This document shows positions 19,678 through 60,185 of a DNA stretch of 64,000 bases, piece after piece; positions within the stretch are counted from its first letter, which is position 1; each line of letters begins with the position of its first letter. Under the pieces are notes generated by a model. The model worked only from the letters and a program-made list of their open reading frames with translations, did not search any database and had not been told where the DNA came from. This stretch comes from Sphyrna mokarran (taxonomy: Eukaryota), in NCBI GenBank assembly GCA_024679065.1, contig JAGIQG010000010.1, forward strand, positions 68,634,001-68,698,000, written 5' to 3'. The translations under genes were made by a program, and so were the position numbers.

Positions 19678-20719
19678 TTTGGAACAATAATGCAAAACAC
19701 TAAAACTATGTAGAATTGTACAAAAACCAGATAAAATAAATCCGTCCTATATTTAACATGTATTCAGTTGGATGGACTTAGAGAGGTACTGATTGACGTC
19801 ATGATCTGCATAATCGACACTGCATAATTTCAACAGACATTCACTGCATGCACATTAATGCCTGCACCAAGATGGCTATTATTGAAGTTTATCTGTACAC
19901 CTTGAATGCCATTTTAGTTGCCTTACTATCTACCATTACTGGCCAGAAACAATAATCTTTGCTATTGTCTCTGACAAAGGGTCATCCAGACTTGAAATGT
20001 TGATTCTATTCTCTCTCCACAGATGCTATCAGATCTGCTGAGATTTTCCAGCATTTTCTGTTTTTGTTGCCTTCTAACCAGGCCACCTTGACATCGGTTC
20101 CCTTCTAATGCTGCCTCAGGCCTGTCTAGAGGTTTTGCCCACCCACTTCTCTAGAAGGTGAAAATTCGGTGGTGATGGGGAGAGGTAATGGATTCAGGAA
20201 CTGCCCCAACTTGTATTTCCCTTGTTCAGAGATGAAAATCCAGTCCAAGTAGTTACACTTAAAGTGCAATAAGATTGTCAAATCTCAGATATCTGCACCC
20301 CTCTAATTCTGGCCTCAAGTTATAATTTGTTCCACTTTAGGTGGCCTATGTGGTCAGTTGCCTAGACCCCAAGCTCTGCAATTTCCTCTCTACACTTTTC
20401 CGCATCTATACTTTACTTTTCTCCTTTAAAACACTCTTAATATCTATCTCTTTGACCAAGCTCTTAGGGCTGTTTAATTACATTGGAAGTGCTATATAAA
20501 TATCATGTATTGTTATTGTGCCTTCTCCTTGTCCTGTCTGATTCTTCTATATATTTCTTTTTGTGGTATGGTGAACAAACAATCCAAGGATGGTCTAACT
20601 AGTCTGTTATTAAAAACTCAGTATAATATCTGGAACTTTATTAACTACTGATTCCAGTACCTTACTTGTTTCCAAGGGCTTTGCCATATTTCAAGGTATG
20701 GAATGTAATGAATAGATTG

Positions 20720-25400: not shown

Positions 25401-28400
25401 ATTATAGATTTGTGCTGTTGTAAATTCTCAATTGTTTCTATGTCACCATTGAAAAAGGAACGAGTCAGTGGTTTGTCGAAGTTACTTTGTGAATTAGGAG
25501 GAGGAGAATTTTGATCACTTAATGCACCTGGTGATGGAATTGAACTGCTTTCCCCAGGTTGAACATTTCCAGCATTCTTGCTAACTTCTGCATCCAGACT
25601 GTTGTCGTCACTGAGTGGGAAATGGGTCAATGGTTTGTATGAATTTATAGGAGATGGTTGGTCAGACACTGAATCAGACAGTGTAGGTCCAGTATTGTCC
25701 TTTTGTAATTGTCTATTACTTCCTCTATCTACAGTGACAGTTGGGCTGTTTGGTGAATAATTCAGTGACTGATATTTATTCCTGTGTGGAATCGTTATTG
25801 AAAACTGTTGCCCAATCACTGAATCCATTGCTGATGATATGTAGGCAATCTCTGATTTGTTTTGCTGTATATTATCTTTATTCAATCTTCTTTCCAATGT
25901 GATGTCACCATTTTTTGGGGTCAAATTCTGTTGTATTTCTTTCTCTGTTGGTGTGACATTTGTTGGAGTTCTCTGGTCAGTCCCTCTATCCTGTGAAATT
26001 GTACCACGGTTTCCCAATTGGTAATTTTCTAAATTAATGACACCTCCGGGACTCCTGAATGGAGAATGAGTGGCTGACTCGTTCATGCTGTTAGTTGTGC
26101 TAGTTGTAGGAAGCTGTTGGTCGGTCAACGAACCTGGTGTTGTTGAAAAATCACGGATATCCTTTTGCAAATATTCATCACGTCCCCGGTCCATTGTGGC
26201 ATTTCCACTAAGTGGGGAATGAGACTGTGAATGGCTTTTGTTGTTATGAGAGAGAATTGAAGGAAACCACTCACTGGTGACTGGAGTTAGTGATAAGGAT
26301 GTACTATTTGCTTCATCTGATATTTTAAACAGATCCAAAGACTCCTTGTCAGGAACAATTTCATTTACCTCAGGTTCATTGCAGAATCGTTTATCATTCT
26401 TGATATCTGTGATATTCAAAGTGGACTTTATATTATATAATGAATCTATTGCTGGAATTGTGTTAGTTTCTGATGAGTCCTTTTGTAAATGCTCATTGAC
26501 TCCAATATCTGCAGTAACTGTTGCACAATTTAGTGAACAATTCGATGTTTTACATTTACTGCTGTCTGTGACATTCTTAGAAGGATGGTAGTTGGACATT
26601 GGATCAAGTGCTGGAAGTATGTGATGTGAGCAAAATTCATCCTGATTAATCAAACTGACATCAGTCCTGGCTGATGAATAACTCAGTAGCTTGTCCTTAC
26701 AGCTATGTATTGTATTTGTAAGAGATTTTTGATGAGTAACTTTATCTCCTGACAACAGTGCACTTTTAGTTTCATGTTTGCATTTTTTCAAATAATCAGT
26801 ATTTTCTCGGTATGCATCGACAGCAACACTGTTTACCAAATGACTTAGAGGCTTGTCTTCATTGCTATGCACAATGTTTGTAGGAGACAATTGGCTGGAT
26901 ACCTGATTCAGTGTTGAAGGCATAGACTTGGTCTCAAACGTGTCCACTGCATCACAAGTATCATTAGCTTCTCTGTCCACACTGATGCCATCAACATGTA
27001 GGGAGCAATTCTGTAATATATTTCTCCTGCTTGGTGACATATTTTTATGCCTGTTCAGTTTATCTGTTGATGGAGCTGCACTGCCTTTGTCAGATTGGCA
27101 TGTCTCTATAGTTTTGCTATCTGCTATCAAACTGCCATCTCTGACCGGAGAAAGGGTTTCTGATTTGTCTTCACTGCTGCTTTGCGGGGTACTTTCAGGT
27201 AGCCACTGGCTGGTCACTGCAGTTGATGGTGAGGGTGCACTCTTTGTTTTATGCAAAACATTTAATTTGAATTTGCCGGTTGGTCTCTTACGATGATAAA
27301 TGTCAGTTACCTTTGTTCCACAATGCTGCAGTGTATTTTTTTTCACATTGGTAGCACCCACAGCAAAATGAGGAGCAGTGAACGAATACACTGGTGAAGT
27401 GACAGGGCTGATTATAGATTTGTGTTGTTGTAAATTCTCAATTGCTTCTATGTCACCGCTCTCCAAGGAACGAGTCAGTGGTTTGTCGAAGTTACTCTGT
27501 GAATTAGGAGGAGGAGAGTTTTGATTACTTAGTGCACCTGGTGATGGAATCGAACTGCTTTCCCCAGGTTGAACATTTCCAGTATTCTTGCTAACTTCTG
27601 CACTCAGATTGTTGTCATCATTGAGTGGGAAATGGGTCAATAGTTTGTGTGGATTTGTAGGAGATGATTGGTTAGACAACGAATCAGACAGTATAGGCCC
27701 ACTATTGTCCTTCTGCAAATATTCATTGCTTCCTCTATCCACAGTGACAGCTGGGCTGTTTGGTGAATAATTCAGTGACTGATATTTATTCCTGTGTGGA
27801 ATAGTTGTTGAAAACTGATACCTAATCGCTGAATCTGCTGCTAATGATATATGGACAATCTCCGATTTGTTTTGCTGTATATTCTCTTTATTCAATCTTC
27901 TTTCCAATGCGATGTCACCATTATTTGGGGTCAAATGCCGTTGAGATTCTTCCTCTTCCGTTCTCTGGCCCAGTGAAATTGCACCATGATTTTCCGATTG
28001 GTAAGTTTCCACATTTTTGTTGGAAGATTTCTCATCATGAGCAATTTCAGTTATCTTTGATGGATCAATATACATAGCACTTTTCTTGTTATCAGTGACA
28101 GTGGACTGTAAAGCTGTTAATATTTCTGGTGATGGGTCTATACCATGGTCTTCAGATTTGTCCTTTTGTAAAAAGTGATTGCTTTCTCTCTCTGCATAGA
28201 TATCATTGCTGTGTAAAGGATAAATCAATGATTTGTTCTGGTTGTTAGGTATGATATTTGAAGTCAGCCACAGCGCGATCATCCCAGGTGGTGATGAAAG
28301 TGCTTTAACTGTTTTACCCAAACGCTTGGATTTGTATTGATCACAGGGCCCTTCATCACAACAGATATCAATTACATTTCTTGAATAATGATCAAGTCCA

Positions 28401-31400
28401 TTTTTCCTTATATTGGTGATTGCTGAAGGAGATTCTGGCAGATATTCCATAGCAGTACTTTGCAGTGGATCTGCTGAAAGATCCACACCACTGATTTCTG
28501 AGTTATCTTTCTGCAAATGCTTATTAAATTCAGTATCCGCAATGAAAGTAGAATTGATAAATGAACAATTTAGTGACTCGTCTCTATATATGGGTGTGAT
28601 AATTGTAGTAGATGGATTGCTGATCGCTGGACCTAGGCATGAAGATGGACAAGTAGCTTTAGCTTTGTCCTGCTCTGTTTCTCTTGATATTTCAGCACTG
28701 TTTGGCAAATAATTCAGTTGATCTCTGTTGGATGTGGTATTTATAAGAGACAGTTGATGAGCCCCTTTATTTAAAACAACCGCAGCGTTGCTTTCAGATT
28801 TGCTATTTTTCAAACAACCAAGACTATTCCTGTTCTTTGTCACATCAACACTGCTGAGAGAATGACAGAGTGGTTTGTGTTCATTGCAATGTTTGTTATC
28901 CAAGAGAGACAACTGGTTAAAAGCTGGATCCAGTATAGAAAGAGTATTATCCATCTTAGATTTATCTGTTTTTTTGCCATCTTTAGTAATTCCTCTCAGC
29001 ATAGCAGTGTCAGCACTGTTCCATTCCCAATTTTGAAGTGTATTTTTTGTACCATGTATAATACCTGAAGGTGTCTTCAATTCAGTTGCTGTGGCTGATA
29101 ATGAAATAACTTTGTAGTTTTCAGACTGACCATTTTCTAAATTCTTTGTAACATCTGATCTCACTGGGGAATGATTCAGTAATTTGTCTGTATTATCATG
29201 AGTATTTGTAGAGGACTGCTGGTCACTCATTATGTCTGCTGGTGAAATTGGAATATTTTTTTCAGTTTGGTAATTTTCTGTATTCTTAATGGTTCCTGGA
29301 CTCATGTTGGTATCATCACTGAGTAGGAACTTAATCAATGATTTATCTTGGCTGTCTATGAAATTTGTACGAGGCTCTTGGCCACTCAGTGAATCTTGTA
29401 CTGACAATTTATTGCTGTTGTTAGATTTATCCTTTGGTAAGTGTTCGTTGCCTTCATTAAGGGAAGAATATGTCAATAAAGTATTTTGCTTCAAATGGGA
29501 TGTGACAGGTGCAGATGACAGTTCCTCATTTACTGTTTCAGGTATGTTTTTCTGTGCATCATTGCTGTTTTCAATGATGTAGTTCAATGAGTTACCTTTG
29601 TTGGTGATAGTAAATGAACATTGTGCTACAACTGGTGGTATTGTGGTCTTTTCAAATTTATAACTTTGGACATCATGAACACTATGTATTTCAGGCAAAT
29701 TGCTATCGACAATGTGAGATGGCCAATTCTGTGAAGTATTTTTCGTACTGATACCTGAAGGCAATGTTTCATTTGTGCCTGATAATGATAGAACACAGTT
29801 TAAATCAGATTTATGCTCATTAACTATTGCGTCTGCAGTTATGTCAGTACTCCTGACTGAATCATCCAGTAAAAGGTACTCATAGGTGGAACGTACAGGA
29901 AACGTATAGCTGAGTACTTGGTCTGTTGATAGTGTTATGTCAGCTGTCCGTCTGTAGTTTTGTTCAGAATTTATATTCAAAAGGATATTGTTGGTTGATG
30001 ACAGACTTTGGGAACTAAATGCTTTGTGGTTTGGAGATTGCATTATAACCATTTTTGTTGCATGACTCATTTCTGATTCATCATTTTGTGAAGCAGTACC
30101 TATACTGTCTAAGAAGACATCATCAGTTTTTGATTGATTGCTCAGTAATGCACTATCATGATGAATTATATTTGTTACACATTTTGGATCTGCTGAAAGT
30201 TCATGACTGGTTTCATGTTTAATTTTCTGTGAGCAATCATTACTAATTAGCTCAGTTAGTAATAAAGATGTACTTCTTCCCTCATTTTCACAACTGTGTT
30301 CCCAACTGTTATTTTCACTTTCTGGCATAGGGCCATCTGCATCTCTTAATGTGACAGGTTCCACTCTGGTCTCACTTGATATGAGATTATCTACTGAAGA
30401 TTTTTCTTTCTCTGTGTACATAAACAAAGGGCTGCTTTCTCTTCCATCCCTATTGCTTTGTAAATGATCATTACATGTACTTTGTACAGTAATATTAGTG
30501 TTATCTGACCCAGAATATTGATGCTTAGTTTTGCTGCTGATCGTGATAAATGAAGTTGCCCTTGATTGGCACTCTGGTTCTGACAGGAAAGTGGGACTAA
30601 GGGATCTATAGTTACTGGTTTGCAAAGAATCATTGTTACTGTCTCTTTGGAAAGTGGCATCACCACAATTTTGCAAATCAATAGTCCACCTACTGTGAGT
30701 ATATATGGAAAACAGAGGAGTGTGTGGAATATATATTGAAACATGTGATGATTTTGTTTTGCTATAGTTTAAATAATCAGCTCCATCCATTTTTTGTGAA
30801 GTACTGAGTGAACTATTCGACAAATTCTGTTGTTGCACATCTCTGTTGCCAAGACTAAGACTACTTGGGCCTGAATTTAACGATGAAGATTCACTATCTC
30901 TTTGTGACTGGTCATAAGTATTGTTTGACGACTGGCTTTGCAGACTATTTCTGTTGCTATCAGCAACAACTGGAAGAGATTGTGATTTGGTTAGTAAGTC
31001 CAGTAAAGATGTTCTGATGATTTCATGCTTGCTGATTGACAAACAACTTCCAGTATCTGTTTTCAGAATGTCATTAGTATGGTTTATTGGCTGATTTTGA
31101 AACATATTTTGAGGCTCAGTAATAGAAGTCTGTGAGCCAGATGCTGAATTTGGTAACATTGTATTGTCAGTTTTGTATTGACATATTTCAGTAGAAGTAC
31201 AATCATTTCCTCGAAAAGCATGAATGTTTCTTGACAGATGACTATGTTTCACATTTGCAATGTTGCACTGAATTGGCGCTGACTGTAGTTCAATATTTTC
31301 GCTTAACTCTGAAGAATTCAGCAAAATGTTGGTTTGATTGTCATTTCCATATTGTTTTGTGAGGTGGTTATAATTTTGAACACCTTTTATGGCAGTGTTT

Positions 31401-31455
31401 TGCAACTTGGAATTGCTTGAATCTTCAGTTCCTACGATCTTTTCATGTTCATGCA
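22460..31455 (-). CDS. EXPH5: EXPH5 giant terminal coding exon 6 (8996 nt, Ser/Thr/Asn-rich, internally repetitive)
   Basis: Uninterrupted ORF with acceptor tgtttgcAG at 31457-31456 (phase 1). The C-terminal motifs KLWKPGYL and SDTTTDDEYFLD...KESAL* resemble the conserved EXPH5 C-terminus. Adjacent to POGLUT3 as in tetrapods. Confidence 0.9.
23930..27950 (-). repeat. In-frame tandem duplication with ~2010-nt (670-aa) period inside EXPH5 exon 6
   Basis: Identical anchors: tggtcactgcagttgatggtgagggtgcac at 25201 and 27211, tggtgaataattcagtgactgatatttatt at 25751 and 27761 (offset 2010). The offset is 2019 at 24721/26740. Confidence 0.95.
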
Positions 31456-31549
31456 CTGCAAACACAAACATGATCAAGAAAATTAACAAATAATAAGTTT
31501 CTCTCTGGACTTACTGCACTACATTCTCTCAGGTCAAATCCTACAGTGA

Positions 31550-33568: not shown

Positions 33569-36500
33569 CTAAGATAGATTGCATTCTCTTAATTAAATGA
33601 TTCTATTCATAAAATTTAAATTCATTTGTGGAACATGGGCATTGCTGGCTGGTTGGCATTTATTGCCCATCCCTAAATGCCCGAGGGCAGTTGAGAGTCA
33701 ACCATATTTCTGTGGCTCTGAAGTCACACGTAGGTAAGGACAGCAGATTTCCTTCCTTAAAGGATATTAGTGAACCAGATGGGTTTTTCCGACAATCAAC
33801 AAACATTTCATGGTCATCAGTAGATTCTTAATTCCAGATTTTTTTTTTATTCATGGCAGGATTTGAACCTGGTTTAACAGAACATTAACTGCATTTGCCA
33901 ATTAATAGTCCAGCAATAATACCACTAGGCCATTATGAATTATGAAGGGAGACTACATAGACTGTATAAAATACAGCACAGACATTTTAAAAAACAGAAT
34001 ATGCCCCTGAGTTTCTAAACTTTGTTCTTTCATTCTAAGTCATAGCTAAATCACTGAAAGAAAGTTTCCTCTTTAGTAAGAGATATGGGATGGGAAATTG
34101 GATTACATTGTGCATTCATTTGAGTGCAAAATGGATCAACAAACCCTGATTTCAGGGTCCTTAGGAAAGCCGAAAAACATTCAACCCAAAATTAGGTAGG
34201 ATCATTTTCCAAGTGTCCCTGGTAGTTACCTAAACTTGTCATTTGATCCCCTAAATATATGAGTGACATAACACCTGTTTAATCCCCTCAGAATTTTGAT
34301 ACTGATGAGTGTTGGAATTTGAGATAAACAAGTTAGCCTAAGGTATTTAGGTAGTATTAGATTGTTAGGCTGGGAAACCCAGGTAACAAGCTAAGGATGG
34401 ATACTGGACACAGTCAAAGACAGATGTACTGAATATAGTAAGTACCAAAGTTAGATCCCTTTACCAGAATAAGATAAACATAAAGTAAACATTTTGGAGA
34501 TAGGATTCTACACGGCTTCTAATGATTACCACCACTATCACCAGTGTACTATATACAAGATTCACTGCAGCAACTCAGTAAAGCTCTTCCAACAGTATCT
34601 ACCAATCCACAACTTCTCCCACCAGGAAGGATAAGGATAGTAAACATGTGGAAACTCCATTGCCTTGGTGGGAATACATGTATTCTGAAGTAATCACAGC
34701 CAGTCAGAAAACAACTATTCATTAAATGTAATAATCTAAGAGACTCATAGGATTCAAACCCAATCAATTTCAGATCATGCAAACATGGAATCTTTATAAG
34801 TGGATAACATGGTTTTGGTTGCAGGTTAGTGACTGGTTTAGTGAGTTTTGATTCACAGTGACAGTATAAAAAAGGGGTTGCGTGTACATGTGTGTGGTTT
34901 TGCAGTTGCTTAGCCTCTGCATAAGCCTATTCATACTGTATCAATTCTGAACCCTGATGAAATAAAGAACTTTGTTTCATAAAATTGTTTACATCATTAC
35001 TTCAACAGGATTATCCCAGTCTTTGAAGGGGTTATCGATAGACATTAAGGAGCAGGGCAGGTATTGGGCCAGTCCCACTCAAAGTTCTCAGCAGTCACTG
35101 TGACAAATAGCTAGCATTTAGTTTTTTTTGAGAGTATTTTTTAAATTGGAAAAAGACTCCTATTTGGGAACTCAGTCCAATTTTGGCTCCATGCTGTTCC
35201 CAAAAAAAAAGCTTAATTTGTTAAGTTTTTGCAATTAAGTTTCAAGAATTTGCAAATGCCTTTCTTTTAGTGTGCTTGATGTCAAAAATGAGTATATTTC
35301 ACCTAACTGAAAGGCTTATTTTATGTTCCCCTACAAAAAAGTATGATGTATTCCTTCATTAACTTCCAAGTTGCAAAGATCTCTTACTGTGCCAACTTTT
35401 AAAGTTTCTAGAGATTATATAAGCATAGAGAAGCAAATAATTGATGGGATACGACTTCAGTTCCAATCTTGTCATACGAATGTTATTTGGGGAACCTTGA
35501 GATGAATAATATGATACTGACTTCCTGGAACATTTTACTCAATTGGCTTTAGGGGTCATAATTGTTTTAAAAAATTCTTTCATGTGGATATCACTGGCCA
35601 GACCAGCATTTTTTGCCCACGAGTAGGTTGTGGCGAGCCTCCTGCTGGAACTTTTGCAGTGCGCTTGATGTAGATGTTGTTGGGAAGGGACTTAGAAGCA
35701 CTGAATCCATTCAGCCCATCAAGTCTGCACCGACTCTCTGAAAGAGCATCTTACCAAAGACCACCCCCCCTACGCCCCCAATCCCTGTAACCCCACACAT
35801 TTAGCATGGCTAATCCACCTAACCTATATATCTTTGGACTTTGTGAAGCCTCCTTACTAGATGGTGGACAAAATTCATCTAGCCATGAATTACTGTCCAC
35901 CATAATTCATGGCTAGATGTGACTGTAGAGCTTTGATCTGATCTGTTGATTGTGGGATCACTTAGCACTGTCTATCTACATTGTTTCTGCTGTTCGCATG
36001 CAAGTGTTCCTACGTTGTAATTTCCCCACATTAACAAGTCACTTTAGGTATGCATGGAGATGCCTGACATGCCCTCCTGCACTTTTTATTGAACCAGGAT
36101 GTATTTTCTGCCTTAATGGTAGAAGTGTATGGTTTCCCAGAACATGAGTTAAAAGTTGTGATTGAACATCATTCTGCTCTGCTGAAAGCTCATAGCTTTT
36201 CAAGTTTTGCCCAGTTTTGAGTTGTTCTGAACCTATTTAGCACAATGGTTGGGCCACATAAAGCAAAAGAAGATATGCTCATTGTGAAGACAAGACTTCA
36301 TTTTCACCAGGACTGTGCTGACCACCTCTAAGTCACTCAAGAGCAAGTGAAATCTCATCAAAACTGAAATCACGTGTCTGAAATCAATGCCTAATGTTGC
36401 TCCACATTCATATCCTCAGCTATCTGTTTACAAGTAGGAGAATTTCTTCATCTTCAAAAGAAATCAAATTAGAATAAGGAAACAACTTTCTTCCATTCTT

Positions 36501-40163: not shown

Positions 40164-40493
40164 CAGAATAAAATAGAATCCCTACAGTGCAGAAGTTGGC
40201 CATTTGGCCCAGCGAGTCTGCACCAACAACAATCCCACCCAGGCCCTATCCCTCTCAGCCCGCTGCTAACCCTTTAGTCTACACATCCGAGGACACTAAG
40301 GGGCAATTTAGCATGGCCAATCAATCTAACCTGCACATCTTTGGACTGTGGGAAGAAACCAGGGTACGTGGAGGAAGCCCACACAGACGGAGAGAATGTG
40401 CAAATTCCACACAGGGTGACCTAAGCCAGGAATCGAAGCTGGGTCCTGGAACTGTGAGGCACAGTGCTCACCACTGTGCTACCGTACCATCCC
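40164..40493 (-). mobile_element. HE1-type V-SINE
   Basis: Reverse complement of the 8365-8690 type, with head, V-core and CR1-type tail. Confidence 0.9.
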
Positions 40494-42629
40494 ATCTATA
40501 AACATAGATAACGTTTCAGATGTGACATTTTATCAGAACTGAGTTAAGTTAGAAATGCAACAAGTTTTAAGCAAATAAAAGCAGGGTTAGGTAGGGGGGA
40601 CTTTTATTTCCAGTTGGTTCCACAATGTGTTGTTCATAATATATATGGTCCATAATCCTGGACTCCCCGATCAGGAGAAATATTTTCTCTCCATGGATCC
40701 TATTTAGTCCCCTTGAAAGCTTTAATCATTGCTTATTTAAATTCCAGGAAATACAACCCCCCGCCTGTGTAATCTCTCCTTGCAGTTGTTGGCACTGTTT
40801 TTGTGTTCTAATTTGTTTAAATCGCTAAAAACAGAGTAAATAGGCACAGCCACGTATTGTGCCTTTAATGAATGTATTAACTACATGATCCATTATGAAT
40901 AGTCAGGTTTTTAATAAGCTCATATTACAAGAGCCAATACTTGGGGGTATATCATATTCTACAATCCAGCATGAATACAACATACCAATGGTTCGCTCAC
41001 AACTCTTATACTTAATCTGCCATTGATTTCTACGTTCCATGCATATTACCATTAAATTATAGTACAAAGATAGATAAAAGTATCAGAATAACAACATGGA
41101 GACAAGATGCAATTAGGTTCTCGCAATCTCTTCTAATCATTCAATAGTCTACTGAAGCTCATCCAATAATTTTATTGCTATGAATACAGTGACCATATCA
41201 TCTCCCAGATCATTAGGCACACGTCAGCCTTCTGATTTGCAGAGATATCTTTAAGATGCATTGTACAAGTGCCTATGTTCAACTGAGTGCAGTTTTAATT
41301 TCTTCCATCACACCTTGCTCCCAGCCACCTAACAGGAACCTAGCTACTAACATCATTTGAAATTTGGCTAAATCTGCCAGTAAGGTTAAGATTAACTTTT
41401 CCCATCTTCTAACGAAATAAAAACCTTAGACTATACTGAGAAAACAAACCTCTCTCTCAGTCTGCTACTCATGCTATGTGTGTGTGTGAGATCAACAAAC
41501 TCTTCAGGTCCTGTTCCTCATACTTCCCTGGGCATAAGCAGGCTAATCATTGCTTAACAAAATATTTCAAACTTTCCAACACCCCGGGGATCTGAATCTT
41601 TTTAATATGACCGCATTTGATTAGGTTAATGTTTTATTAGCTATACAGAAAAAAGTGACCTTGATTAAATCTTTACTTAAAAAGAGGGAGTGTCCTAAAA
41701 AAGCCAATTGGTTTGATATGAAATAAACTAATGAATTCATATGATTGCAATAAAAGATTTAAATAATTCATACTACAAAGAAATTTCAAGTAAAGTGATT
41801 CAGCTAAGAACTTGGACATTTTTTAACACATTTGAATCAGAAGATCAAATTACTATCACTTAAAGCCAGTTCTGGGAGGTCAGGTGGTTGCAACAGATAG
41901 TGGAAATGGCTGAAAGAGAGTCACTGGTAAGAAGAACATTGAATAATGTTCAGCGAATGGGCTCCTGATGCAGAACTGGTGCAGGATATGGACAGGAGCA
42001 ATGAGATTCTCTATCCAGAGAACTAGAGGGCCTTTCCAGACAGACATTGCAAAGTCAGTGAAATCATTCCACAATCCATGCTAGTCTGAGAACTAGAATA
42101 TAGTGTGCTGCATGAATTTTACCCTTGCAAAACAGTAAAGGTAAATGAATTCATCTTCAAATGCCATTGCCTTTGAAATGAGCTTCACTAGTCTCAGATA
42201 TCGCTCAAGTCACTACTTTCTCTCCTTCACTCTCAATTCTTTAGCTTTATCTCATGCCAGCTCACTTAGCACTGCTGCAAGTCTTAGAAATATTCTGGGG
42301 TGAAGTTGAGATATTGGAGGAGGCACACCAACAAGTTTCCAAACAATCCATCTAACCAACCCTTTAAGCACTGCTGGCCTTCACACGTGGCAGAGCCAGC
42401 AGATTACACACTAAATTTATCAGCCAACTCAGTAGCCATCAAACTAAAGTGGAAGCAAGTCATCCTAAATTCCAAGGGACTGCCTAAGGAAAGGGGGTAT
42501 GTCAATATTGAGGGACAATGGAAAAGCAGGAACAAGCAGATGGGTCGGCAACATCTTGTGTTTTGTTAATGTAAGATTGGAGAGCATTGTGAAGGCACAG
42601 AAGTAACTACCCCAAACGCCATTGCCATA

Positions 42630-42812
42630 ACCTGCACATTTAGCATGGCCAATCCACCTAACCTGCACATCATTGGACTGTGGGAGGAAACCAGAACACC
42701 CCAGAGGAAACTCAGACACTGGAGAACGTACAAACTCCACACAAAAAGAGCTAGCCAAGGCTACAATCGAACCTGGGTGCCCTAGTGTAGCGGCGCTAAT
42801 CACTATGCCAGT
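42630..42812 (-). mobile_element. HE1-type V-SINE, partial
   Basis: V-core tttagcatggccaatccacctaacctgcacatc...caaactccacac plus head. Confidence 0.8.
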
Positions 42813-43082
42813 GTTACAAAAAAAACAAGCTAGACTTTCCTGATAAATGTGATTGTTGTGACTGGTAAGTTTCTTCATTATGAAATAGGAATTATAACAA
42901 TTCATTTAATTATTACATTAGAGAAAAATGGCAATTTGTTTCTGAACAAAAAGTTGGAAAAGCTTGGTTTTAAATTACAATCAAATATTGAAAATATTAG
43001 CTTACGTGTTCATGCTGAGACAAAAATCACAAACTATTCTCAGTCTCTATCAAGTTTAGATCATAACAAATGGTTTACTAAC

Positions 43083-46365: not shown

Positions 46366-48222
46366 ATAGGATCCATCTCTTCCTTGGACACAGGTGAGGT
46401 CCCAGAGGACTGGAGGATAGCAAATGTAGTATCGTTGTTTAAAAAAGGTCAGAGGGATAACCCAGGGAACTATAGGCCGGTGAGCTTGACTTCAGTTATA
46501 GGTAAGCTAATGGAGAGGATTCTCAGGGACAGGATGTATGAGCATCTGGAGTGCTGCGATCTGATCAGGGATACGCAGCATGGCTTTGTCAAGGGGAAGT
46601 CTTGTCTTACAAATCTAGTGGAATTTTTTGAAGAAGTGACAAAAACAGTTGAAGGACATGCTGTTGATGTCATCTACATGGATTTCAGTAAGGCGTTTGA
46701 CAAGGTTCCTCATGGTAGACTGATAGAGAAGGTGGAGGCGCATGGGATACAGGGCCGGGTATGTAGATGGGTCGAGAACTGGCTCGGGAGGAGGAGACAG
46801 AGGGTAGTAGTGGAAGTAGTTTTTCCGACTGGAAGCCTGTCACTAGTGGAGTGCTACAAGGCTCAGTACTAGGTCCTCTTCTATTTGTGGTCTACATAAA
46901 TGACTTGGAAGTAGGGGTAGGTGGTGAGATCAGCAAATTTGCTGATGACACTAAGATGCTTGGATTGGCAGGTACAGAGGAGCAGTGCCAGGCAATACAA
47001 CAGGACATAGATAGGTTGGTATACTGGGCAGATAGATGGCAAATGGAATTTAATCCGGATAAATGCGAGGTGATGCATTTTGGCCGGAAAAATGTAGGAG
47101 AGTTATAGGATAAAAGGTAAAACTATTCGGACTATAGAGACGCAGAGAAACTTGAGGGTGCAGGTTCACAAGTCTCTGAAGGTGTCTTCACAGGTGGAGA
47201 AGGTGATAAAGAAGGCGTATAGTATGTTAGCTTTCATTGAAAAGGGTATAGAATACAAGAGTAGGAGTTTGATGTTGCAATTGTATAGAACGTTGGTTAG
47301 GCCTCATTTGGAATACTGCGTCCAGTTCTGGTTGCCGTACTATCGGAAGGATGTGGAGTCCTTGGAGAGAGTGCAGAGGAGGTTTACCAGGATGCTGCCT
47401 GGTATGGAAGGACTGTCTTATGAGGAACGATTAGATAGACTGGGGTTGTTTTCCCTTGAAAGATGTCGGCTTAGAGGGGATCTCATAGAGGTGTATAAGA
47501 TTATAAGGGGTATAGGTAGAGTAAATGGAGGTAAACTTTTTCCACCTTTAGAAATGGATAGGACGAGGGGTCATGGCCATAGGGTGAGGGGGGCTATGTA
47601 TAGGACGAATATTAGAGGGCAGTTTTTTCACACAAAGGGTAGTGGGGGTGTGGAATGCACTGCCGAGTAAGGTGGTGGGAGCAGGCATGCTGGGGCTGTT
47701 TAAGGGTCTCTTGGACAGCCACATGAGCGGTATGCAGATAGAGGGATATAGTAGGACTGTTTAACTACGGCTTTTTTTCCACAGGTAATTCAGTCCATAC
47801 TTGACCAACATTGAGCATGCATTTGGCAGGTGGTGCGGGTACAGCTCTTGGATGTTGGATTGCCTGGTACCTCATGTCGTAAATGAGTGCTTTATGTGGA
47901 CCATCTGAAGGGCACCATGACAGCTCAGAGACTATCGATGTGGCTGTGCAGACACTTGGAATTGGGCCGGTGTCTGTGGGAGTTTGCGCGTTCTCCCCGT
48001 GGTTGCGTGGGTTTTCTCCGGGCGCTCCGGTTTCCTCCGACATCCCAAAAATTCGCTCTTAGGCTGATTGGGAAACAAATTGTCCCTACGTTTAGACTCT
48101 TCTATATTAGGAATAACCTAAAATTAGAATAGGATAATGGAATTGTTACTATATAGTTATGACGGCGGCACGGGCTCGTTGGGCCGAAGGGCCTGTTTCC
48201 CGTGCTGTGTTGCTCTAAATCT
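46366..48222 (+). mobile_element. Young 5'-truncated CR1 LINE (RT domain nearly intact) with extended 3' UTR containing a V-SINE body
   Basis: ORFs 46300-46872, 46767-47108 and 47152-47670 give contiguous RT motifs (YMDFSKAFDKVPH, GVLQGSVLGPLLF, KFADDTK, RPHLEYCVQFW) with few lesions, followed by a ~460-nt 3' UTR and CR1 tail. Confidence 0.95.
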
Positions 48223-49964
48223 GGATCACCTGAATGTATACCATACAAATAAACTAATCTGTCCATTTCAAACAAAAGATTAAAGCCATGCTTACATCAT
48301 GGAATCAACCATTTTGTTTCTTTAGCAGTTGATTATCTACTTTGGAAAAGGATGATGCCAATTGTCCATGTGTATTCAATTTACAAGGAAATACCTTTTA
48401 AAATGTAATTTCAATGGACAAACAGGAATACTTTACAAAAAGTAGAATTAGTTTCTGTTGGTCTTGAACAGAAACTTCAAGGAGCATCATTTTAAATTTA
48501 AACTATTCTATTCCCCTAGCAGGGGTATGCAGTAGCAGCTGGTTTGCCTTTCTCAATGCCAGGTCCCTCAATGAGGCAAAGTACCTTTGAATGAAAGAAG
48601 CCCCCTCACTCTCTGGGAAGCCCCTGGGAATGCGCAAACAAACATACCAGGGTTTACTTGTTGTGCTTTCTGCATGCTGAGCCCCTTGCCCACTATTGGG
48701 TTAACAACAGCAATGGCAGGATGAGTTCATGCGGGCACTAATTGCCCATTTCAGTACCTCAATTGGTAGCTGGGCAGGAAAGCTGTCAACAGGTCATAGT
48801 ACTCTGGACTTAACTGGGGTGAAGGCAAGAAGGTGGTGTCTCACCTGTTTGAAGTGCTCTCACTCCTGTGTCTTCTCACCATAGGAGAGGGCACAAGATT
48901 CTGTCCATTATTTGCAGATTATGTTGTTAAAAACTAGTAGAGTATTTTGTACTTATCAGTCAATATCAAACTTACAAGCACAGGACTCTGCACACCCTCA
49001 AGACAAACACTAAGTAAAGATCAACAATTTAAAAAAAAAATCAAGACTCTCACTTGAAACATTCACTGAATCCTTACACTACACACATGATAGCACTTCC
49101 ACCAGCAGCTTGGCATCAGCATCAATATCATAAGATCAGTGGACAGCACTACAGTCTCCTCAGAATAAAATGGTATAAATCTGGGAGGTAGGAGCCCTGA
49201 AGTATAAATAATGCTTTCAACTGTGCAAGCTATCATTTTCTGACCCCCTATATAAGCAATGCCGCTACCCAATAATTGGCCTGTGTGAATGTTCCTTACC
49301 ATTGAGGACTGAAGGTCAGAAATGAATTAAAAAGGCACTACTGACAAACTGGGCACTGGAAGCCTGGGTATTTTTGTCATATGTTCTAAAAACAACTCTA
49401 TAATCAAAATACATCACAAAAACAATTCTAACAAAGCTCATAATTAAAGACACATTTGTTTTAAAACAAAAGGAAGGAAAAAGAGAAAAAAAATCAGAAA
49501 AGGAACGACTCCACCGTCACCAACAACGGCAGGCTACAATAACTCATGTTTCAAATCATGAAGCCAAGCAAATAACATCCTCATTTGGAAGCACTAACGA
49601 TGATAACAACTGCACATCCTATGCATTGTATTGGCCGTAAACCTTGAGATGATCTAGAAAAGCACGTGTCTAAATGCAAATTTTTTTTCTCCTGGAAGTG
49701 ACATTGGATGCATAATATCTGTCCATACAAGGGGAGGCACACTATAACAAGATCATGGCACGTTATGTATGTGCAATCTAACAACTATGGACAGAGTTCT
49801 GAGCCACTAAACTGCTCAGAATGAACCTCAACAAAAACCACCGCCTTTTCTGAAGTATCAAGACAAGTTCTGTAGAAAGATGATCTAGATCCAAAATGTT
49901 AACTCCATTTCTCAAAGATATATCTTCAGACCTGCTGAGGGTTTATGCATCATTTTTTCTTTTT

Positions 49965-50345
49965 ATATAAAGAGATGGCTGGACTGGAGGCAAGAAGGGC
50001 CCTCAGATCCTTTTGGAGTCTCACTCTCTCAGCATGTTGCCCTTGAAGAGGCTGCAATGGGGAAGAGACTGTTACCCACCTCTTTCCGGAAAATGTCTTT
50101 ACAGAGAAGGTCTGGAAACTGATGCAGTGGTATGTCAAAGGTCATCTTACACAGCTCCATGGCACAGGTCCGTCTGTGCCAAGGGCTGTTCACGTACCGT
50201 ACAGCTCGAGAATCATCAATTTGGCGAAAGACATTCTTTGTTGAATGTGACTGAGCAGTGCAAACCGGCACATTTTGAGATCCAGAACTATGTGTTGAGG
50301 GATATAAGTTTGAGGCAGTCAATGCAAAGGCATCTTAGGCTTTTC
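49965..50345 (+). mobile_element. L1/Tx1-like ORF2 C-terminal fragment
   Basis: RGCNGEETVTHLF...EKVWKLMQWY, a zinc-binding-like motif. Confidence 0.6.
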
Positions 50346-50897
50346 AGTGATTATGAAAGGAGGGAGATGGTGACATAGTGGTATTGTCATAAAGTAGTAA
50401 TCAGAGGTCCAGGGCAAGATCTGGAGACTTGGGTCTCCAGAGCTACAGGAATGTGATTGACTCCTAAATGGAAGGTAGTTATGGATGTTGGCCCAGCCTA
50501 TAACACTCATATGCCAGAAACATTTTTTTTATTAAATGCTGGAAAATGGGTGAATCTCCTTAGGCTAGGTGTAATGATTATTGTAAGTTGTAAATGAATA
50601 ACATAGTTTTGAAAGAAACATAGTTGGTTTGTTTCCATAATGCCAACTTTGAAAGGTCTTCTAGATATCATATGAAGAAAATATACTTTTGGAAAGAAAA
50701 TCCCTGATATCCATCGTTACGGACTGCCAGGGAGCAGAAATTCCACCCCCCTCTCCCTGATACATAGAAGTAATTGACTTTTTAGCAATTTACCATAGTA
50801 ATATCGCTATGAAACAGAACTTAATATGGGGAAGGTATGGTTGGCACAAATCTGCAACCTGTTATTCACCCGTCCAGAATATTATCTAGCTGATATA

Positions 50898-51516
50898 CTG
50901 GAGGCAGGCACTCTGGAGTTATTTAAGAAATACTTAGCTAGGCACATGAACAGAATGGGAATGGAGGAGTATAGAAAACTGATTTAAAATAAGGATCATG
51001 AGCCTTAGGAGTTCCTGGGAAGTGTGTAAATAGATGATGATATTGATGTATTTGTTTTTATCCTACAGGTGCTTTGGTCCACCTTGTTGTCTAACAAGGG
51101 GCATACACGCGATGGGTCGTGAGAGGACTGCTCTTGGATTTTTTTTCCAGAGTATCCTAGTGCTTCACGTTGTTAGTGTATGCTTGACCTGGACCATTTG
51201 ATGGGCAACACGGCAGCTCAGTGACTATAGCTGTGCTGTGCAGATACATGGATTTGGGCCTGCGGGAGTTTGCGCATTCTCTCCATGCTTGTGTGGGTTT
51301 TCTCCAGGTGCTCCAGTTTCCTCCCACATCCCAAAGATGTGCTCCTAGGCTAATTGGCAAAACAAATTCTCCCTAAATTGTCTCAAATTTGGTTTTTAAT
51401 CCATAGATCTATAAACATGGACAGGGATAGCGGGTAGAGGTGGGAACATCGAGGTGGCGGCGCGGGCACATTGGGCCGAAGGACCTGTTTCCTGTGCTGT
51501 TTTGTTCTTTGTTCTT
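50898..51516 (+). mobile_element. 5'-truncated CR1 3' end with the same hairpin + V-SINE cassette; 7-bp target-site duplication
   Basis: ORF2 end (EAGTLELFKKYLARHMNRMGMEEYR), cassette, tail (TTGTTCT)n. TGATATA at 50891-50897 and 51517-51523. Confidence 0.85.
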
Positions 51517-52294
51517 TGATATATTGGGTAAGCGTATGTTTCCCCAATTCAAATGTTGATCCACATAACTGATTTTTGTTTTGAGTTGCAGGGTCCGCAT
51601 TCTGGAAACAGTGGAATTAGTGACATTGTTTCGTTGATTTTATGGCGCACGGATGAGGAGATGAAACACTGGAGGAGTTGGTCAGGGAGCGGAGAGAATT
51701 GAAAGCACCCAGTAGCTGTCATTCACGGAGACTTGCCTTGCGTAGGCATACTCATCGGAAAGTATCTCCTAACCCATATTTCACTCCGGTGGAAATTGGT
51801 CAGAGTGGTGACACTCTCAATGTTAGTACTTGCTTTTTGTTTGTATTCGTATCACTTTTTTTTACAATAATGATAGTTTGCCAAATCCTCAAGATTAAAC
51901 ATTTCCTTTATCATCATTTTGCTCTGTAACAATTCCACCACGTTAACTTTCATGGGTTAAGGGTAACTCCATACTTTCGGCGCTTGTGTTTTGTGCCCTT
52001 ACCCTTTCCAGTTTGTTAAATTTTGTTTCTGTTCGTTTCTGACATCAAAATGGATAAAATCACTCGATTTCGAAATAAGAGACTGAGAATATTAAAATCG
52101 GGTAATAAATGTATCTCTGCATTGTTACAGTATTTCTAGCGTGCTTTAAAAAAGTAACCAGTTTGCTTCACAATCAAAAGCATTTTTGAGACAATCCCTG
52201 GCTCCACGTTTCAACAAGGGTCAGATACTGTGTCAGTATCAGCTCTCCGGAGCAACTCACAAGTAATTGAACACAGGCTAGTTTAGTTACATAC

Positions 52295-52431
52295 CTCAAC
52301 CTCTCGTTGTTCATCCTCTGAACCGCCTTATCCCGCTCCAGCACCTCCAGGATCGCATTCACTTCCTCCTTGCTGAGGAAACTCAGATCCACCGAGTGCT
52401 TTGATTTGGGCGTCCTTAAACGGTAAGACAT
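52295..52431 (-). CDS. EXPH5: EXPH5 coding exon 1 (Slp homology domain SHD1, Rab27 binding)
   Basis: MSYRLRTPKSKHSVDLSFLSKEEVNAILEVLERDKAVQRMNNERLR fits the SHD1 pattern DLSFLxxEExxxILxVLxR. Donor AG|GTATGT, 137 nt, phase 2. Confidence 0.9.
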
Positions 52432-54300: not shown

Positions 54301-57300
54301 TGTTCACGGTAGATGTTTGGGGTGGGAGTAAACCTTCAGTACAACTAGCCCGCCCCAACCTTTTAGTGCATTTCTAATAAAGAACTAAATTTGTAACTTC
54401 AACTTGCTTTCTTCCCTTCAAAAAATTTCAATTAAGGATTTTTTTATTCAGATTGCTCAAAAAAAATCCCAATTTTCTAATCTGTGATTGGACTTGCAGT
54501 TTGTATTAGTTGTTTGTTTTCTAGAGCGTTCTCAACAAACTTCATGTTGATGATGATTAAAAAATAATAATTGCTAAATAGAAAAAAGTCTGTCCAGTTT
54601 GCCTTCTGCATTCCTACTGGTCATATCCAATATGTTTCAACTTGAACTTGGTAGCTGACATCTGAAAAAAAACTTGCAATGTCACACACCTTCCCCATGT
54701 TGTTGCCAAATGCCAGCGGAAGCAACTCAAACTACTTAGTTATATATTAATAAACACTGGGCTATGGAATGCCTTTCTAAATTCTTGGAAAAGGCTGCAC
54801 GCACCACAGAAACAAGATAATCTGATGGTAGACATAACCTCTAGATTCTGTTTCAATTGAGAAATTAAATCTCAAAAATCATGACAGTCAAGACAATGGG
54901 AAGTGTGGAGCAAGGCAAGATTAATCTCAATCTAAACAAGGATGATATCCTTCTTAATACTTTCTTATTCCTCCTTGTAAATAAAAATTGTGTTCTGTTA
55001 ATTCTATGAAATTAGAATTCTTTCTATTTTGGGCACCCAACGTCAACATCAGGAACAGTCAATTTACTTATCCAATGTGTTAGTTATTTCTGAAGAAGTC
55101 ATGTTGAGTTTGAAACATTGACTCTCTCTCTCTCCACAGATGCTGCCATATCTGCTGGATTGTTCTCACACTCCCTGTTTTGAAATGCCAACATATTGAT
55201 AAGGGTGAATGATTAAATAGTTGGGACTAGGAATCGGAAGACACCCATCTGGCTGTCCAGACCAGGTCAGTATGTCACAACACCTGAAACTGGGCAATTC
55301 ATGAAATGATAATGATTTGGTTAAATCATTACCATTGTTTCTATTGATTTTTATAGATAGGTTATAAGAAAGGATTTTAAAAAATTAATTATTGAATGCA
55401 GGAGTTGCTGGGCTTTTGAATGGCCTATTAGACCATTTCAGAGGGCACTTAAGAGTCAATCACATTGCTATAGATCTAGAGTCACATGAAGGCCAGACTA
55501 GGTAAAGATGGCTGATTGCGTTCCATAAAGGACATTAGTGAATTAGATAGGTTTTTAAGACAATTGACAGAAGTATCATGGTCACCATTAGACTTCTACT
55601 AAATTCAAATTCCACCATTTGCCATGATGAATTTGAACCCAAGATTCCAGAGCATTCACCTGGATTTCTGGATTACTATTCCAGCGGCAATACAATTAGA
55701 CTACTACCTCCCCCTTTTCCTTTGGCCAAAGAACGCTTGGAACGAACCCACAAACTAACTTTCATGGAAGGATGAGTTGATGGGAGGGGCATCAGTACAT
55801 GTCACACTGACTGATGTGATGATGCCCAAAGCATAAACATTTGGTATAATCACATTTCCAATCAGGCAAATAAGAATGTACTACTTGTGGTTATAGGGAT
55901 CAAGAGATATGGGAAGAAGGTAGGATCAGGATATTGAATTTGATGATCAGCCATGATCAAAATGAATATAGTGGAAAGTCTGGAAGGGCTAATGACCTGC
56001 TTCTAGTTTCTATGTTGCTGCCTGACTGGATTATTTGCAGCATTTTCTATTTTTATTTTAGATTTTCAACATCTGCAATATTTTGCTTTTGTAATGGTAA
56101 TGCTGTTGCATTTTGAAGCCATTTCTCAGGCATTTGATTGCTTCCTGTCTTACTGATCCTCGATAAAATACAATCAGTGTCACCAATAATGGATAATCAC
56201 CACAGATCCTTTTGGAACTTGGAAGTGAAATATTTAAAATGGTTAATTAACAGATATCCCTGAATTCTAACAGCCCTATAGAAAAGGAAATCCATGAAGA
56301 TAATCGGTGCAAGATGTCTCTAATGAAAATGGATATTGGCTTTTTTTACACATTACTGATATATTTGGGTCTGCTGGATACCCATGGGAAGACTCATGTC
56401 AGCCACTTCCATTATAGTGGAATGCCCCACTTCAATGGTAATAGACTCACACTTCCCTACCACTGTTGTTGGTGGCCCCTCAAAATCAAGGATGACATTG
56501 AGTAGGCTTGGATGACTGAGGAGCTCAATTTTGTAGCCACAAGTTCTGTTGTAGTGGGAGTATGTTGTTGCATACGGGAGTGGATTTCATAGCCTTGGGT
56601 TAGCTTCCCAATCCTTTCCTTGCCACCACTGTTCTGTCTTGCTATCAAGTCAATGAGTCTCAAAACCTTGGGCTTTGATGGGCCAGATGGAACTATGATG
56701 AGCCGTTCACAACCTTTGCCTTTCCTTTAGTGATGTAAATGCCTCCAGGCTTTAGAGCAGTCTTGTCACCTCCCTATATCAACTTGTAGATTAGTGCAAT
56801 TCAGGTGCAGTGGAAGCATTCACTTGTGGTCTGAAATTGATGATTTGTGTTGTTTACCCACAAATGGACAAATTTTGCATTAGACAAGGAAAACATCAGT
56901 TGTTAATTCCACATTGAGAAATGTACAGAACAATAGATTTGAGCAGTGCAACGTTGGTCAGTTGATATAGATCATCTTATCTTGAAGAGAATAATTATCC
57001 TTTAATAAAAGCAAATTACTGCGGATGCTGGGATCTGAAACCAAAAGAGAAAACATTGGAAAATCTCAACAAGTCTGGCAATATCAGTAAGGTCACTTGG
57101 ACTTCCTACAGATAATTATTCTTTAGTCTGGTCAACAGTCCAATAAGCCCTGTCTTTTGCAGTTTTTAGCTACTATCATTTCTGATTTGAAAATAATTCT
57201 GTTGCAGTATTAAAGTTCCTTCGCTGAGTGAAAATTCAAAATTTTGAAACTCCTTCCCAAACAGCACTGTGGGTGTTCCTATGTGGATTGAGCGGCTCAT

Positions 57301-58199: not shown

Positions 58200-58500
58200 A
58201 GTTCAGTTTATTTTTTAGCATCACAAGCAGACTTACATTAACATTGCAATGAAGTTATTGTGAAAATCCCCTAGTCGCCACATCCAGCGCCTGTTTGGTA
58301 CACTGAGGGAGAATTTAGCATGGCCAATGCACCTAACCAGCATGTCTTTCCAGATGTGGGAGGAAACCAGAGCACCCGGGTGAAACCCACTTGGATGCAG
58401 GGAGAATATGCAGAGTCTGCACAATGACCCAAGCCAGGAACTGAATTTGGGTCCCTGGCACTATGAAGCAGCAGTGCTAACCACTGTGGCACCTTGCCAC
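58200..58500 (-). mobile_element. HE1-like V-SINE with a non-CR1 3' tail
   Basis: Head and V-core as in the other HE1 copies, but the tail differs (ggcgactaggggattttcac...cttgtgatgctaaaaaataaact). Confidence 0.8.
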
Positions 58501-60185
58501 TCCTAACTAGAATACCTGTAGAAATTGCTGTTCTTTGCAATGGGAATAATGATGTATATTGAACAGGTAGATTGATTTAACATTCCATCTGAGAGACAGC
58601 ATTTATTACAATGAAGCATTTTAGCTGTAATCCATAAAATGTCCAGTTAGATTAATGTGTTTCTTGAGAGTGTGATTTGAGTGAATAAGTGAGCAATTAC
58701 ATTTAGTAGCAAAGAATTACAGAGCTGACTGCCATTACTTCATCAGCGTGATGGTAGATCCAGTTTAACTGTGGATGATCCAGTAGCCCCTCCAATCTCC
58801 AAATTGTTGGTGTTTCAATCAGATCTTGGTTTTGATCTACAGTGCCCAATTTAAAGGGGAAATTTATCTCTGAAAATGGATGACAAGAGTGCCCAGTGTT
58901 AAATGATTAATGGTGACTTCTGTCTGTTTCATCCATATTACAGACAAAAATTACACCATTTAATTTTCACCTGTTATCTTGGCAGTGCCCATGAGATGCT
59001 TCCAGTTTCTTTACATCTTGCTTAGCAACATTTAATCAGGTCCACACAAGAGTACTGAAATAGCAGTACTTCTGTTTTTGTAGGGATATTTAAATCCTGT
59101 ATAAAACCTGACTGAAAAAAAAACAAATCTCAGTCTGGCAGACTCACTTCTCTCATTTGGTTCGTTACCTGAGCAGAATATGCCAAAGAATATCCCAAAC
59201 ACGTTATTTTTCCAATGAATCTCTGAGATCATGTTTTGCCAAAGTGGGTCATCTGCACAATCCAGATATATGGAAGACTGCCTGTAGAGCTTTGGTCTAA
59301 GATTCAATCCATAGACTCACTGAGCAAAATTGGAACCATGAAGCAGCTCAGACTTTTTTCAGATCTGATGCAGAATCTTTTACATTTGTGGTTCTCCAGC
59401 TGGACAAATAGCTCTGAGTCTGTACAGCAATACTTTCCAAATGTTTTCTCACTGTGTGCTATGTTTTCCCATTTTTAAGCTTGAAAATTGTCACAACCCC
59501 ATAGTGAAAATGAGCTGGAGAGTAAAATTGAGAAGCGCAGGGTGGATTTGGTAGAGTGAAGAGAGCTTGGGAGGGGAGGAAAGAGATTTGAGAGAGGGGG
59601 TGCAGCAGTTAAGCATGATGGGAAATTTTAAAATGCAGTTTTTTTTAAAACTATCTTTTCATAGACTTTTCTGCAACAGGAATCAGACCTCGAAGATCTG
59701 TCCATTAGGCCATGCCCAACAACTGAAAAGTAGTGAGAATTTAAGAGGGCCTCGGAGATGTTAGCAGTCAATTAAGCTCCATGACAGCCATGGCTGCTCT
59801 GGAGATCACAATCTCAAAAATCCCATTGCTCAATTCCATGGGGATCGCAACCCAAAGTTTGAGAAGTTCTGGTATGTATATTAAATTAGTCTCAGGAGAA
59901 TGTTAAGGAAATAGTCTTGTAATGACAACTCAAATTGTTTCTGCTGACAATATCAAAGGCTGCCTTGAGTTCTACATTTGTGACTTCCAGAGGGCAGTGA
60001 GACAATTACAGAGAGCGAATATGTAATACCTGATCCTGAGACTTGCATTGATGTACAAGGATGGAAAAAGTCTGTTAAACTGCAAAATACAATTATAAAA
60101 TAACCATACTTCTGGATTCAAAATTAACACCCAGACTTCTTAATTGCACCACATCCAAATTTGGATTTCTGGATTTGTGCCAATG

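Follow-up and report, generated by a model that had tools for sequence, protein, structure and literature searches.

Two CR1 retrotransposons of Sphyrna mokarran share a 3' untranslated region with a V-type SINE core, apparently captured from a SINE

We analyzed a stretch of 64,000 nucleotides from the genome of Sphyrna mokarran (assembly GCA_024679065.1, contig JAGIQG010000010.1, positions 68,634,001 to 68,698,000 of the forward strand), hereafter the window, in whose own numbering all positions are given. Two long interspersed elements (LINE) of the CR1 type in this window, copy 1 (46374-48222) and copy 2 (50898-51516), carry behind the end of their second open reading frame (ORF2) a homologous 3' untranslated region (UTR) of 460-530 nucleotides (nt) that contains the core of a short interspersed element (SINE). 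Both copies reside on the plus strand, antisense to a host gene on the minus strand, the first coding exon of which occupies positions 52300-52431 and which is presumably EXPH5, the label given in a preliminary description of this DNA. The exon produced no Pfam match, with Rab-binding domains appearing only below the threshold (0.89). The shared UTR, or cassette, has the same order of parts in both copies, namely an acceptor-like tract, a module of about 120 nt, a decayed tRNA-like head, a V-type SINE core, a spacer and a CR1 tail. The names V for this core and HE1 for the SINEs of the window are used here on our assumption that they apply.

Copy 1 starts with a 5'-truncated ORF2 that extends from the reverse transcriptase domain to the C-terminus (46374-47764, stop codon 47762-47764) and is broken by three frame changes into four in-frame pieces, none of which contains a stop codon. 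Its product matches Pfam RVT_1 (E = 9e-18) and, at 69% identity, a CR1 piece within a gene model of Stegostoma tigrinum; across this model and five ORF2 proteins of CR1 type identity is 65-69%, compared to 40-52% for gene models of birds. Based on these closest relatives, we assign ORF2 to the CR1 clade. The stop codon is followed immediately by the acceptor-like tract (47765-47786, AG at 47783-47784), whose branch-like motif overlaps the stop, and by a module in which a long hairpin is possible but weak (47787-47906, z = -0.84, no Rfam family). Next come the head (47907-47968), which has no usable B box and is 83% identical to that of copy 2, the V-type core (47969-48088), an AT-rich spacer (48089-48163) and the CR1 tail with a stem-loop (48164-48222, stem 48166-48207). 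The element is flanked by the target site duplication (TSD) GGATC (46369-46373 and 48223-48227), which moves its start from position 46366, as given in the preliminary description, to 46374.

Copy 2 retains only the last 29 codons of ORF2 and the stop (50898-50987, stop codon 50985-50987). An extra segment of about 60 nt (50988-51046), which is not present in copy 1 and has no clear match in the window, precedes the acceptor-like tract (51047-51070, AG at 51067-51068) and includes a 6-bp match to the 3' TSD (51038-51043). The long hairpin of this copy (51071-51198) is strong (z = -4.65, equalled by 0 of 200 shuffles) and belongs to no Rfam family. The decayed head, again devoid of a usable B box (51199-51259), the V-type core (51260-51377), the spacer (51378-51455) and the tail, with its stem-loop (stem 51458-51499) and short terminal repeats (51456-51516), follow in the same order as in copy 1, and the whole is enclosed by the 7-bp TSD TGATATA (50891-50897 and 51517-51523).

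The preliminary description had proposed two CR1 elements with homologous UTRs and identical order of parts, and all of this holds: the two cassettes align at 74% identity over 328 nt (E = 6e-49), and the tails align again separately. Similarity is unevenly distributed along the elements. Identity amounts to 61/89 (69%) at the end of ORF2, 16/22 (73%) in the acceptor-like tract and 78/119 (66%) in the hairpin module, and rises to 50/60 (83%) in the head, 95/112 (85%) in the core and 46/53 (87%) in the tail; the spacers, which are not alignable with each other, agree at 41/73 positions, the level of shuffled sequences (z = 0.3). The substantial difference between the copies claimed earlier is apparent in the ORF2 ends, the hairpin and the spacer. 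At the codon level the ORF2 ends are identical at 47/72 nt, and 14 of the 25 differences fall on first or second codon positions. Decay of copy 1 after insertion accounts for little of this. Among the residues invariant in six relatives, 20/237 are changed in copy 1, which by rough conversion would correspond to a nucleotide decay of about 4% at most, an estimate that covers copy 1 only. Because copy 1 has decayed so little, most of the 35% difference between the ORF2 ends arose in active masters, and the two copies accordingly derive from different, diverged CR1 masters or families. The cassette may, as had been proposed, be fixed in a CR1 lineage, judging by a sample of two copies whose ORF2 ends are not significantly closer to each other than to a cassette-less CR1.

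Each TSD is located where the ORF2 homology begins. In 3000 random trials, a match as long as TGATATA was obtained by chance in 0.7% of cases and one of at least 5 bp, such as GGATC, in about 5%, giving a joint chance of about 4e-4 for both whole-element TSDs. Hence not only copy 2, for which movement of the composite as a unit had been inferred from its single 7-bp TSD, but also copy 1 is enclosed as a whole, ORF2 end and cassette together, in 2/2 copies. Furthermore, both copies are 5'-truncated, with short TSDs and a stem-loop tail, as in LINEs of the CR1 clade. Judged by these features the composite acts like CR1, and it very probably replicates as a family.

The same junctions bear on a quite improbable alternative, a separate SINE-like family, extended on its 5' side by acceptor and hairpin, that became joined to ORF2 ends on two occasions, either by inserting behind them or through single template switches, with no composite family at all. 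In copy 2 the cassette by itself is indeed flanked by a 6-bp repeat, TGATAT (51038-51043 and 51517-51522), with a chance of 2-7% depending on the position tolerance; the distance from stop to acceptor is about 60 nt longer in copy 2 than in copy 1; and the ORF2 ends are at most 65-69% alike, all of which this explanation would accommodate. However, the hexamer lies within a low-complexity, ATG-rich run, 160 nt upstream of the head. In copy 1 the best repeat around the cassette alone is 3 bp, while a whole-element TSD is present. No SINE-type TSD starting at the head was found in either copy, and separate TSDs around each V core, which the preliminary description had named as the sign of independent SINE insertions, come down to this weak hexamer in copy 2. 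Moreover, 2/2 cassettes begin 0-60 nt from an ORF2 stop, the extended cassette never occurs free in the window, and the alternative leaves behind a tail-less ORF2 stub in copy 2 (there is no tail match 3' of 51523), the 5' edge of which would match over 7 bp by chance. Lacking both a TSD of its own that starts at the head and intact promoter boxes, the cassette therefore fails as an independent SINE.

The relationship to SINEs is clearest in the core. Five free, tRNA-headed SINE copies are present in the window (8365-8690, 40165-40500, 58265-58503, 42629-42814 and 35706-35886), and the LINE-borne cores match the core of these SINEs with profile E values of 1e-19 to 1e-26: the core of copy 1 (E = 1.7e-19) is 68-77% identical to four free copies and 85% identical to copy 2, and that of copy 2 (E = 3.7e-26) is 68-80% identical to the four. 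The minus-strand copy at 58265-58503, with a core only 67-68% identical to those of the other free copies and a different sequence after the core, probably represents another subfamily. A tree of LINE-borne versus SINE-borne cores, as had been called for, could be built for the window copies; in it the LINE-borne pair forms its own clade (support 100/99) against four free copies, the fifth, partial one having been left out, and the pair shares 32 diagnostic columns versus the free cores. Likewise, the LINE-borne tails are 87% identical to each other and only 64-67% to the free SINE tails. The LINE-borne tails resemble a cassette-less CR1 type represented near 5.5 kb of the window, and the free SINE tails fit a type near 15.6 kb better. 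Since the LINE-borne tails are unlike those of the free SINEs and like that of the 5.5-kb CR1, the cassette is not one of the free SINEs of this window dropped behind a LINE.

The other CR1 ends of the window provide the background to this observation. Two of them, at 5367-5600 and 14433-15668, have recognizable tails and short UTRs without the cassette. A third end near 6115-6650, judged by eye, also has a short UTR and no cassette, and the cassette-less 3' ends as a whole comprise at least two tail types. When acceptor and hairpin were combined into a profile, it matched only two places in the 64 kb, both behind an ORF2 stop, and this extension is carried by 0/5 of the free SINE copies in the window. 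The earlier prediction that the cassette lies downstream of CR1 ORF2, examined within the window, thus holds for 2/2 cassettes.

The head is the more difficult part. The B box shows 5/11 mismatches in both LINE-borne heads, compared to 1, 2, 2 and 4 in four free copies, and the LINE-borne head is about 19 nt shorter than the free ones. Direct homology to the free heads is not significant for copy 1; for copy 2, the score of the alignment to the free head at 8365 was reached by 0 of 300 shuffles, with the match at the expected place, and of the two heads only that of copy 2 is covered by a profile of the whole SINE. ARAGORN detected no tRNA anywhere in the window, the free SINE copies included, and Rfam likewise found none in the cassette windows. 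On these alignments the LINE-borne head is likely a decayed SINE head. The degenerate tRNA-like head of the preliminary description is therefore retained as likely, with faint homology to free heads (one of six pairs); of the claim that both heads had lost the B-box region, the part that stands is that neither has a usable B box, whereas the absence of the region depends on the alignment.

These features, taken with the cassette-less CR1 ends, indicate the direction of transfer. V-SINEs range from cnidarians and molluscs to fish (PMC4824008). Given a head remnant with a dead promoter, CR1 ends without the cassette and V domains older than sharks, sequence very likely flowed from SINE to LINE, in agreement with the reversed flow, a LINE adopting a SINE body, that was suggested at the outset. 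The opposite proposal, in which the LINE UTR is ancestral and served as the source or reservoir of the SINE V domain, is barely credible. It can draw on the origin of other SINE bodies from LINE UTRs (RTE and Vingi; PMC5786205) and on the faintness of the head homology, which leaves room for a "head" that is LINE sequence alike by chance. However, V-SINEs, with their distribution from cnidarians and molluscs to fish, are far older than a shark CR1 subclade (PMC4824008), the core is missing from the other CR1 ends, the alignment of copy 2 to a free head falls where it would be expected, and tRNA-headed SINEs with a matching core piece occur in two animal-like contigs (L052 and L053, described below).

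Collectively, these observations lead us to favor, with some reserve, a scenario in which a V-type SINE and the flank upstream of it were captured by a CR1 ancestor, became its new 3' end and were retained as the element diversified. The new end would consist of the SINE plus about 150 nt of sequence upstream of it and would have become the 3' UTR of a replicating CR1 lineage. The capture probably occurred when CR1 transcription read through into downstream DNA or when the reverse transcriptase switched templates, the CR1-type tail stem-loop common to SINE and LINE serving as the priming site. In zebrafish L2 elements, ORF2 strictly recognizes the tail stem-loop (PMC4176376), which renders a swap of 3' ends plausible between partners with a common tail. 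Once the promoter of the LINE made the RNA, the Pol III promoter of the SINE would be redundant and would decay. The lineage would then have split into at least two families, in which ORF2 ends and spacers diverged strongly, and head, V core and tail only a little.

The uneven divergence can be expressed relative to third codon positions of ORF2, 11/24 of which differ between the copies; this yardstick is limited to the 24 positions near the ORF2 end. Compared to these, the core (13/84, p = 0.004), head (8/46, p = 0.02) and tail (6/46, p = 0.004) differ significantly less, and the hairpin (41/119, p = 0.35) and acceptor (6/22, p = 0.23) do not. That head, core and tail changed so little while ORF2 ends and spacers diverged would be best explained by selection in cis on the RNA sequence, for instance in assembly of the ribonucleoprotein, in RNA stability or as a help in tail recognition. 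We regard selection on head and core as fairly probable, and the relative conservation taken alone suggests, as a hint, a function of V in retrotransposition. A competing explanation, possible if unlikely, is that the captured SINE is real and sits in the UTR of a replicating CR1 but is a mere passenger, kept similar by recent exchange or homogenization between the families or with an unseen free SINE family; recent exchange of head and core would mimic selection without any function. Consistent with this, the degree of conservation varies from module to module (66% in the hairpin, 85% in the core, random level in the spacer), most CR1 ends of the window manage without the cassette, conserved SINE domains have been proposed as recombination hot spots (PMC5804259), and MER6 offers the precedent of a headless V-SINE that is not known to have a function (PMC6887750). 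Such exchanges, however, would have to spare the hairpin and spacer that flank the block, and the conservation of the core (85%) is matched by that of the decayed head (83%), which is of no use to a SINE.

The preliminary description had listed a conserved hairpin of about 130 nt; it is strong in copy 2, where a z of -4 is reached by only 1/90 samples of the window, and weak in copy 1, where 36/200 shuffles match it and where a different fold is adopted in wider context. A joint fold comprises 33 pairs, 0 broken and 2 compensatory; its energy was reached by 32/400 column shuffles for a wide window and 7/300 for the core of the hairpin, and 2 compensatory pairs were reached in 370/400 shuffles, so there is no excess of compensation. 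Conservation of the hairpin across copies is, in this folding model, marginal. By comparison, the joint fold of the tail stem-loop beats 295/300 column shuffles, and in head and core no RNA structure above the level of shuffles was detected.

Several possible sources of the module and cassette were considered. A by-eye likeness of the copy 1 hairpin to 5S or another small RNA was not upheld by Rfam, which gave no 5S, 7SL or snRNA match with E values up to 10 in windows of 221 and 291 nt, a search run without a decayed-5S positive control; the best matches were at chance level (e.g., mir-4012, 17 bits against a cut-off of 80). Derivation of the hairpin from a LINE leader was rejected as well: when the first 400 nt of the entries of a 2026 consensus library were searched for four motifs of 10-11 nt, a single match turned up, attributable to chance. 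A coding cassette was also rejected, there being no conserved reading frame across it; in protein searches its open frames returned 0 and 1 matches, the one being a seadragon gene model that runs through an ordinary SINE. The spacer showed no significant match to SINE or CR1 spacers; the likeness of the copy 2 spacer to those of free SINEs is faint and not significant (23 and 44 of 300 shuffles reach the score).

The acceptor-like tract raises the question of splicing. A filter requiring YAG directly followed by G, at least 11/14 pyrimidines, no upstream AG and a branch-like motif was passed by 4 of 4193 AG dinucleotides on the plus strand and 6 of 4020 on the minus strand, and the cassette AGs are 2 of the 4 on the plus strand; the threshold was set after the sites had been seen. 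Under 15% random change, each cassette acceptor would still pass about 14% of the time, and its bases take part as well in the pairing at the hairpin's foot. In the leaders of shark CR1 consensuses displayed in the supplement of PMC13343379, a canonical donor motif was present within the first 400 nt in 7/18, versus 0.85 expected, by a count made by eye on leaders not known to belong to the cassette lineage; this suggests leader introns. Because the threshold is post hoc, the two sites are homologous and the same bases are paired in the hairpin, splicing is only a lead, and we consider it doubtful that the putative acceptor is functional. The most far-reaching version, that a chondrichthyan CR1 clade domesticated the SINE, with V core and head acting in cis and the acceptor allowing an ORF-less RNA, is improbable. 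Splicing from a CR1-leader donor to the cassette acceptor would then remove both ORFs and yield a SINE-like, ORF-less RNA made by Pol II, produced and mobilized by the LINE itself.

Searches for further copies were made in collections that hold no shark genome, and the absence of a third cassette there, as of all other copies, consequently says little. No cassette was found in plasmids or phages, and the head pattern had 0 matches in bacterial and archaeal genomes. The 67 CR1-like ORF2 loci in those prokaryote assemblies (25-72% identity) lack the cassette and are apparently animal contamination. Core-like pieces occurred among them only in L052 (575-700, minus strand) and L053 (2521-2690, minus strand), contigs of a Dysgonomonas metagenome-assembled genome (MAG), each of which holds a tRNA-headed SINE that matches the V-type core in one piece of its sequence; the LINE-borne core matches L052 (28/31 nt) as well as a SINE-like piece in the seadragon gene model. 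Within the set L001-L067, dozens of CR1-like ORF2 come from one Metamycoplasmataceae MAG, and two shark-like CR1 proteins filed under Carnobacterium and Klebsiella (P0104 and P0109) are animal DNA contamination. None of 270 proteins reads into the hairpin or head; one, P0161, reads into a CR1 tail with a short UTR. In the literature searched, which did not extend to most subscription papers, Repbase Reports or Dfam, no CR1 was described whose UTR holds a V domain, and the accessible parts of a 2016 and a 2018 paper state or imply that conserved SINE domains are unknown in LINEs. In its accessible part, PMC13343379 does not discuss 3' UTRs, but its supplement has many shark CR1 consensuses. There is a real chance that a consensus with this UTR, uninterpreted or named, already exists in Repbase, Dfam or the 2026 CR1 library.

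Several of these results weaken the observation or weigh against a captured and constrained SINE. Homology between LINE-borne and free heads is significant in only 1/6 pairs, a profile of three free heads misses both LINE-borne heads, and one alignment keeps part of the B box region in register. The ORF2 ends, 47/72 identical to each other, are 38/72 identical each to the cassette-less 5.5-kb CR1, so their closer kinship is not significant (p = 0.18). To these are added the unequal stop-to-acceptor gap and the hexamer of copy 2, the short neutral yardstick and single decay estimate, the hairpin and acceptor that are no more conserved than third positions, the folding of copy 1, the mimicry of selection by exchange and the failure to find a third copy. 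The number of copies (n = 2), the precedent set by MER6 and the chance of prior cataloguing all limit the weight of the case.

The window contains several further features. One open frame of 3016 codons on the minus strand (22460-31510), attributed to the same host gene as the exon at 52300-52431, has no Pfam match; it includes an internal duplication of about 1.6 kb with 84% identity (24372-25946 versus 26397-27956) and shorter repeated units. An inverted repeat (4839-5232 and 5216-5317) with arms of 84-100 nt, 91-95% identical and 226 nt apart, lies beside a tandem array, rich in AT, that immediately precedes the CR1 fragment at 5367. A 116-nt inverted duplication with 94% identity (11270-11385 and 12552-12667) includes part of an old minus-strand CR1 fragment, and a near-perfect palindrome is found at 13570-13722 (two arms of 74 nt with 84% complementarity, separated by 5 nt). 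Members of a dispersed repeat family, 50-120 nt long, are present in both orientations (8883-8935, 12315-12438, 17348-17436, 19977-20068, 55110-55181 and 57007-57088).

Central SINE domains (V, CORE, Deu) have stayed conserved over hundreds of millions of years, for reasons that are not settled. In the composite described here, a usually parasitic SINE core seems to be a heritable part of the host element, a possible handle on this conservation. If the capture scenario is true, V could be tested in cis by a standard retrotransposition assay, with cassette-less CR1s of the same genome as controls, and flow of sequence from SINE to LINE would be demonstrated; UTRs of this kind would also be mis-annotated as free SINE copies.

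Among known systems, BovB LINE copies are said to have taken up SINE sequence at their ends. This would similarly be a LINE lineage with a SINE-derived 3' end, but BovB belongs to the RTE clade, its SINEs are LINE-derived and no conserved V-type domain is known to be involved. HE1, HER1 and V were reportedly defined in papers by Ogiwara (1999 and 2002). That a tRNA-derived head, a V core and a CR1-type tail occur together, in the same order, links the composite to the HE1/HER1 pair, and such free copies occur in the window. HE1 is a V-SINE of sharks and rays whose partner is the CR1-clade LINE HER1 (PMC3747384, PMC4824008). In that pair, as described there, the tail is all that SINE and LINE have in common, whereas here the LINE itself contains head and core, which follow ORF2 and an extension of 150 nt; in addition, the promoter boxes of the LINE-borne copies are decayed, and their core and tail differ from those of the free copies of the window at diagnostic positions. 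Sequence common to the middle of a SINE and a LINE UTR is also known from SINE bodies derived from RTE and Vingi. In the accessible part of a systematic Repbase comparison of all SINEs with LINEs, bodies were traced only to the 5' regions of RTE and Vingi, and nothing similar to conserved SINE bodies was found (PMC5786205). There the transfer went from a LINE 5' UTR to a SINE; here it apparently went from a SINE to a LINE 3' UTR. The closest precedent is MER6/MER6A, a MITE that holds a headless V-SINE (PMC6887750). In both cases a V-SINE body that is no longer self-transcribed is carried and spread by another transposon. MER6, however, is a non-autonomous DNA transposon with V as cargo, whereas the carrier described here is a LINE that replicates through RNA, and in it the V core lies in the RNA beside the priming tail, a remnant of the head is kept and two diverged families carry the combination.

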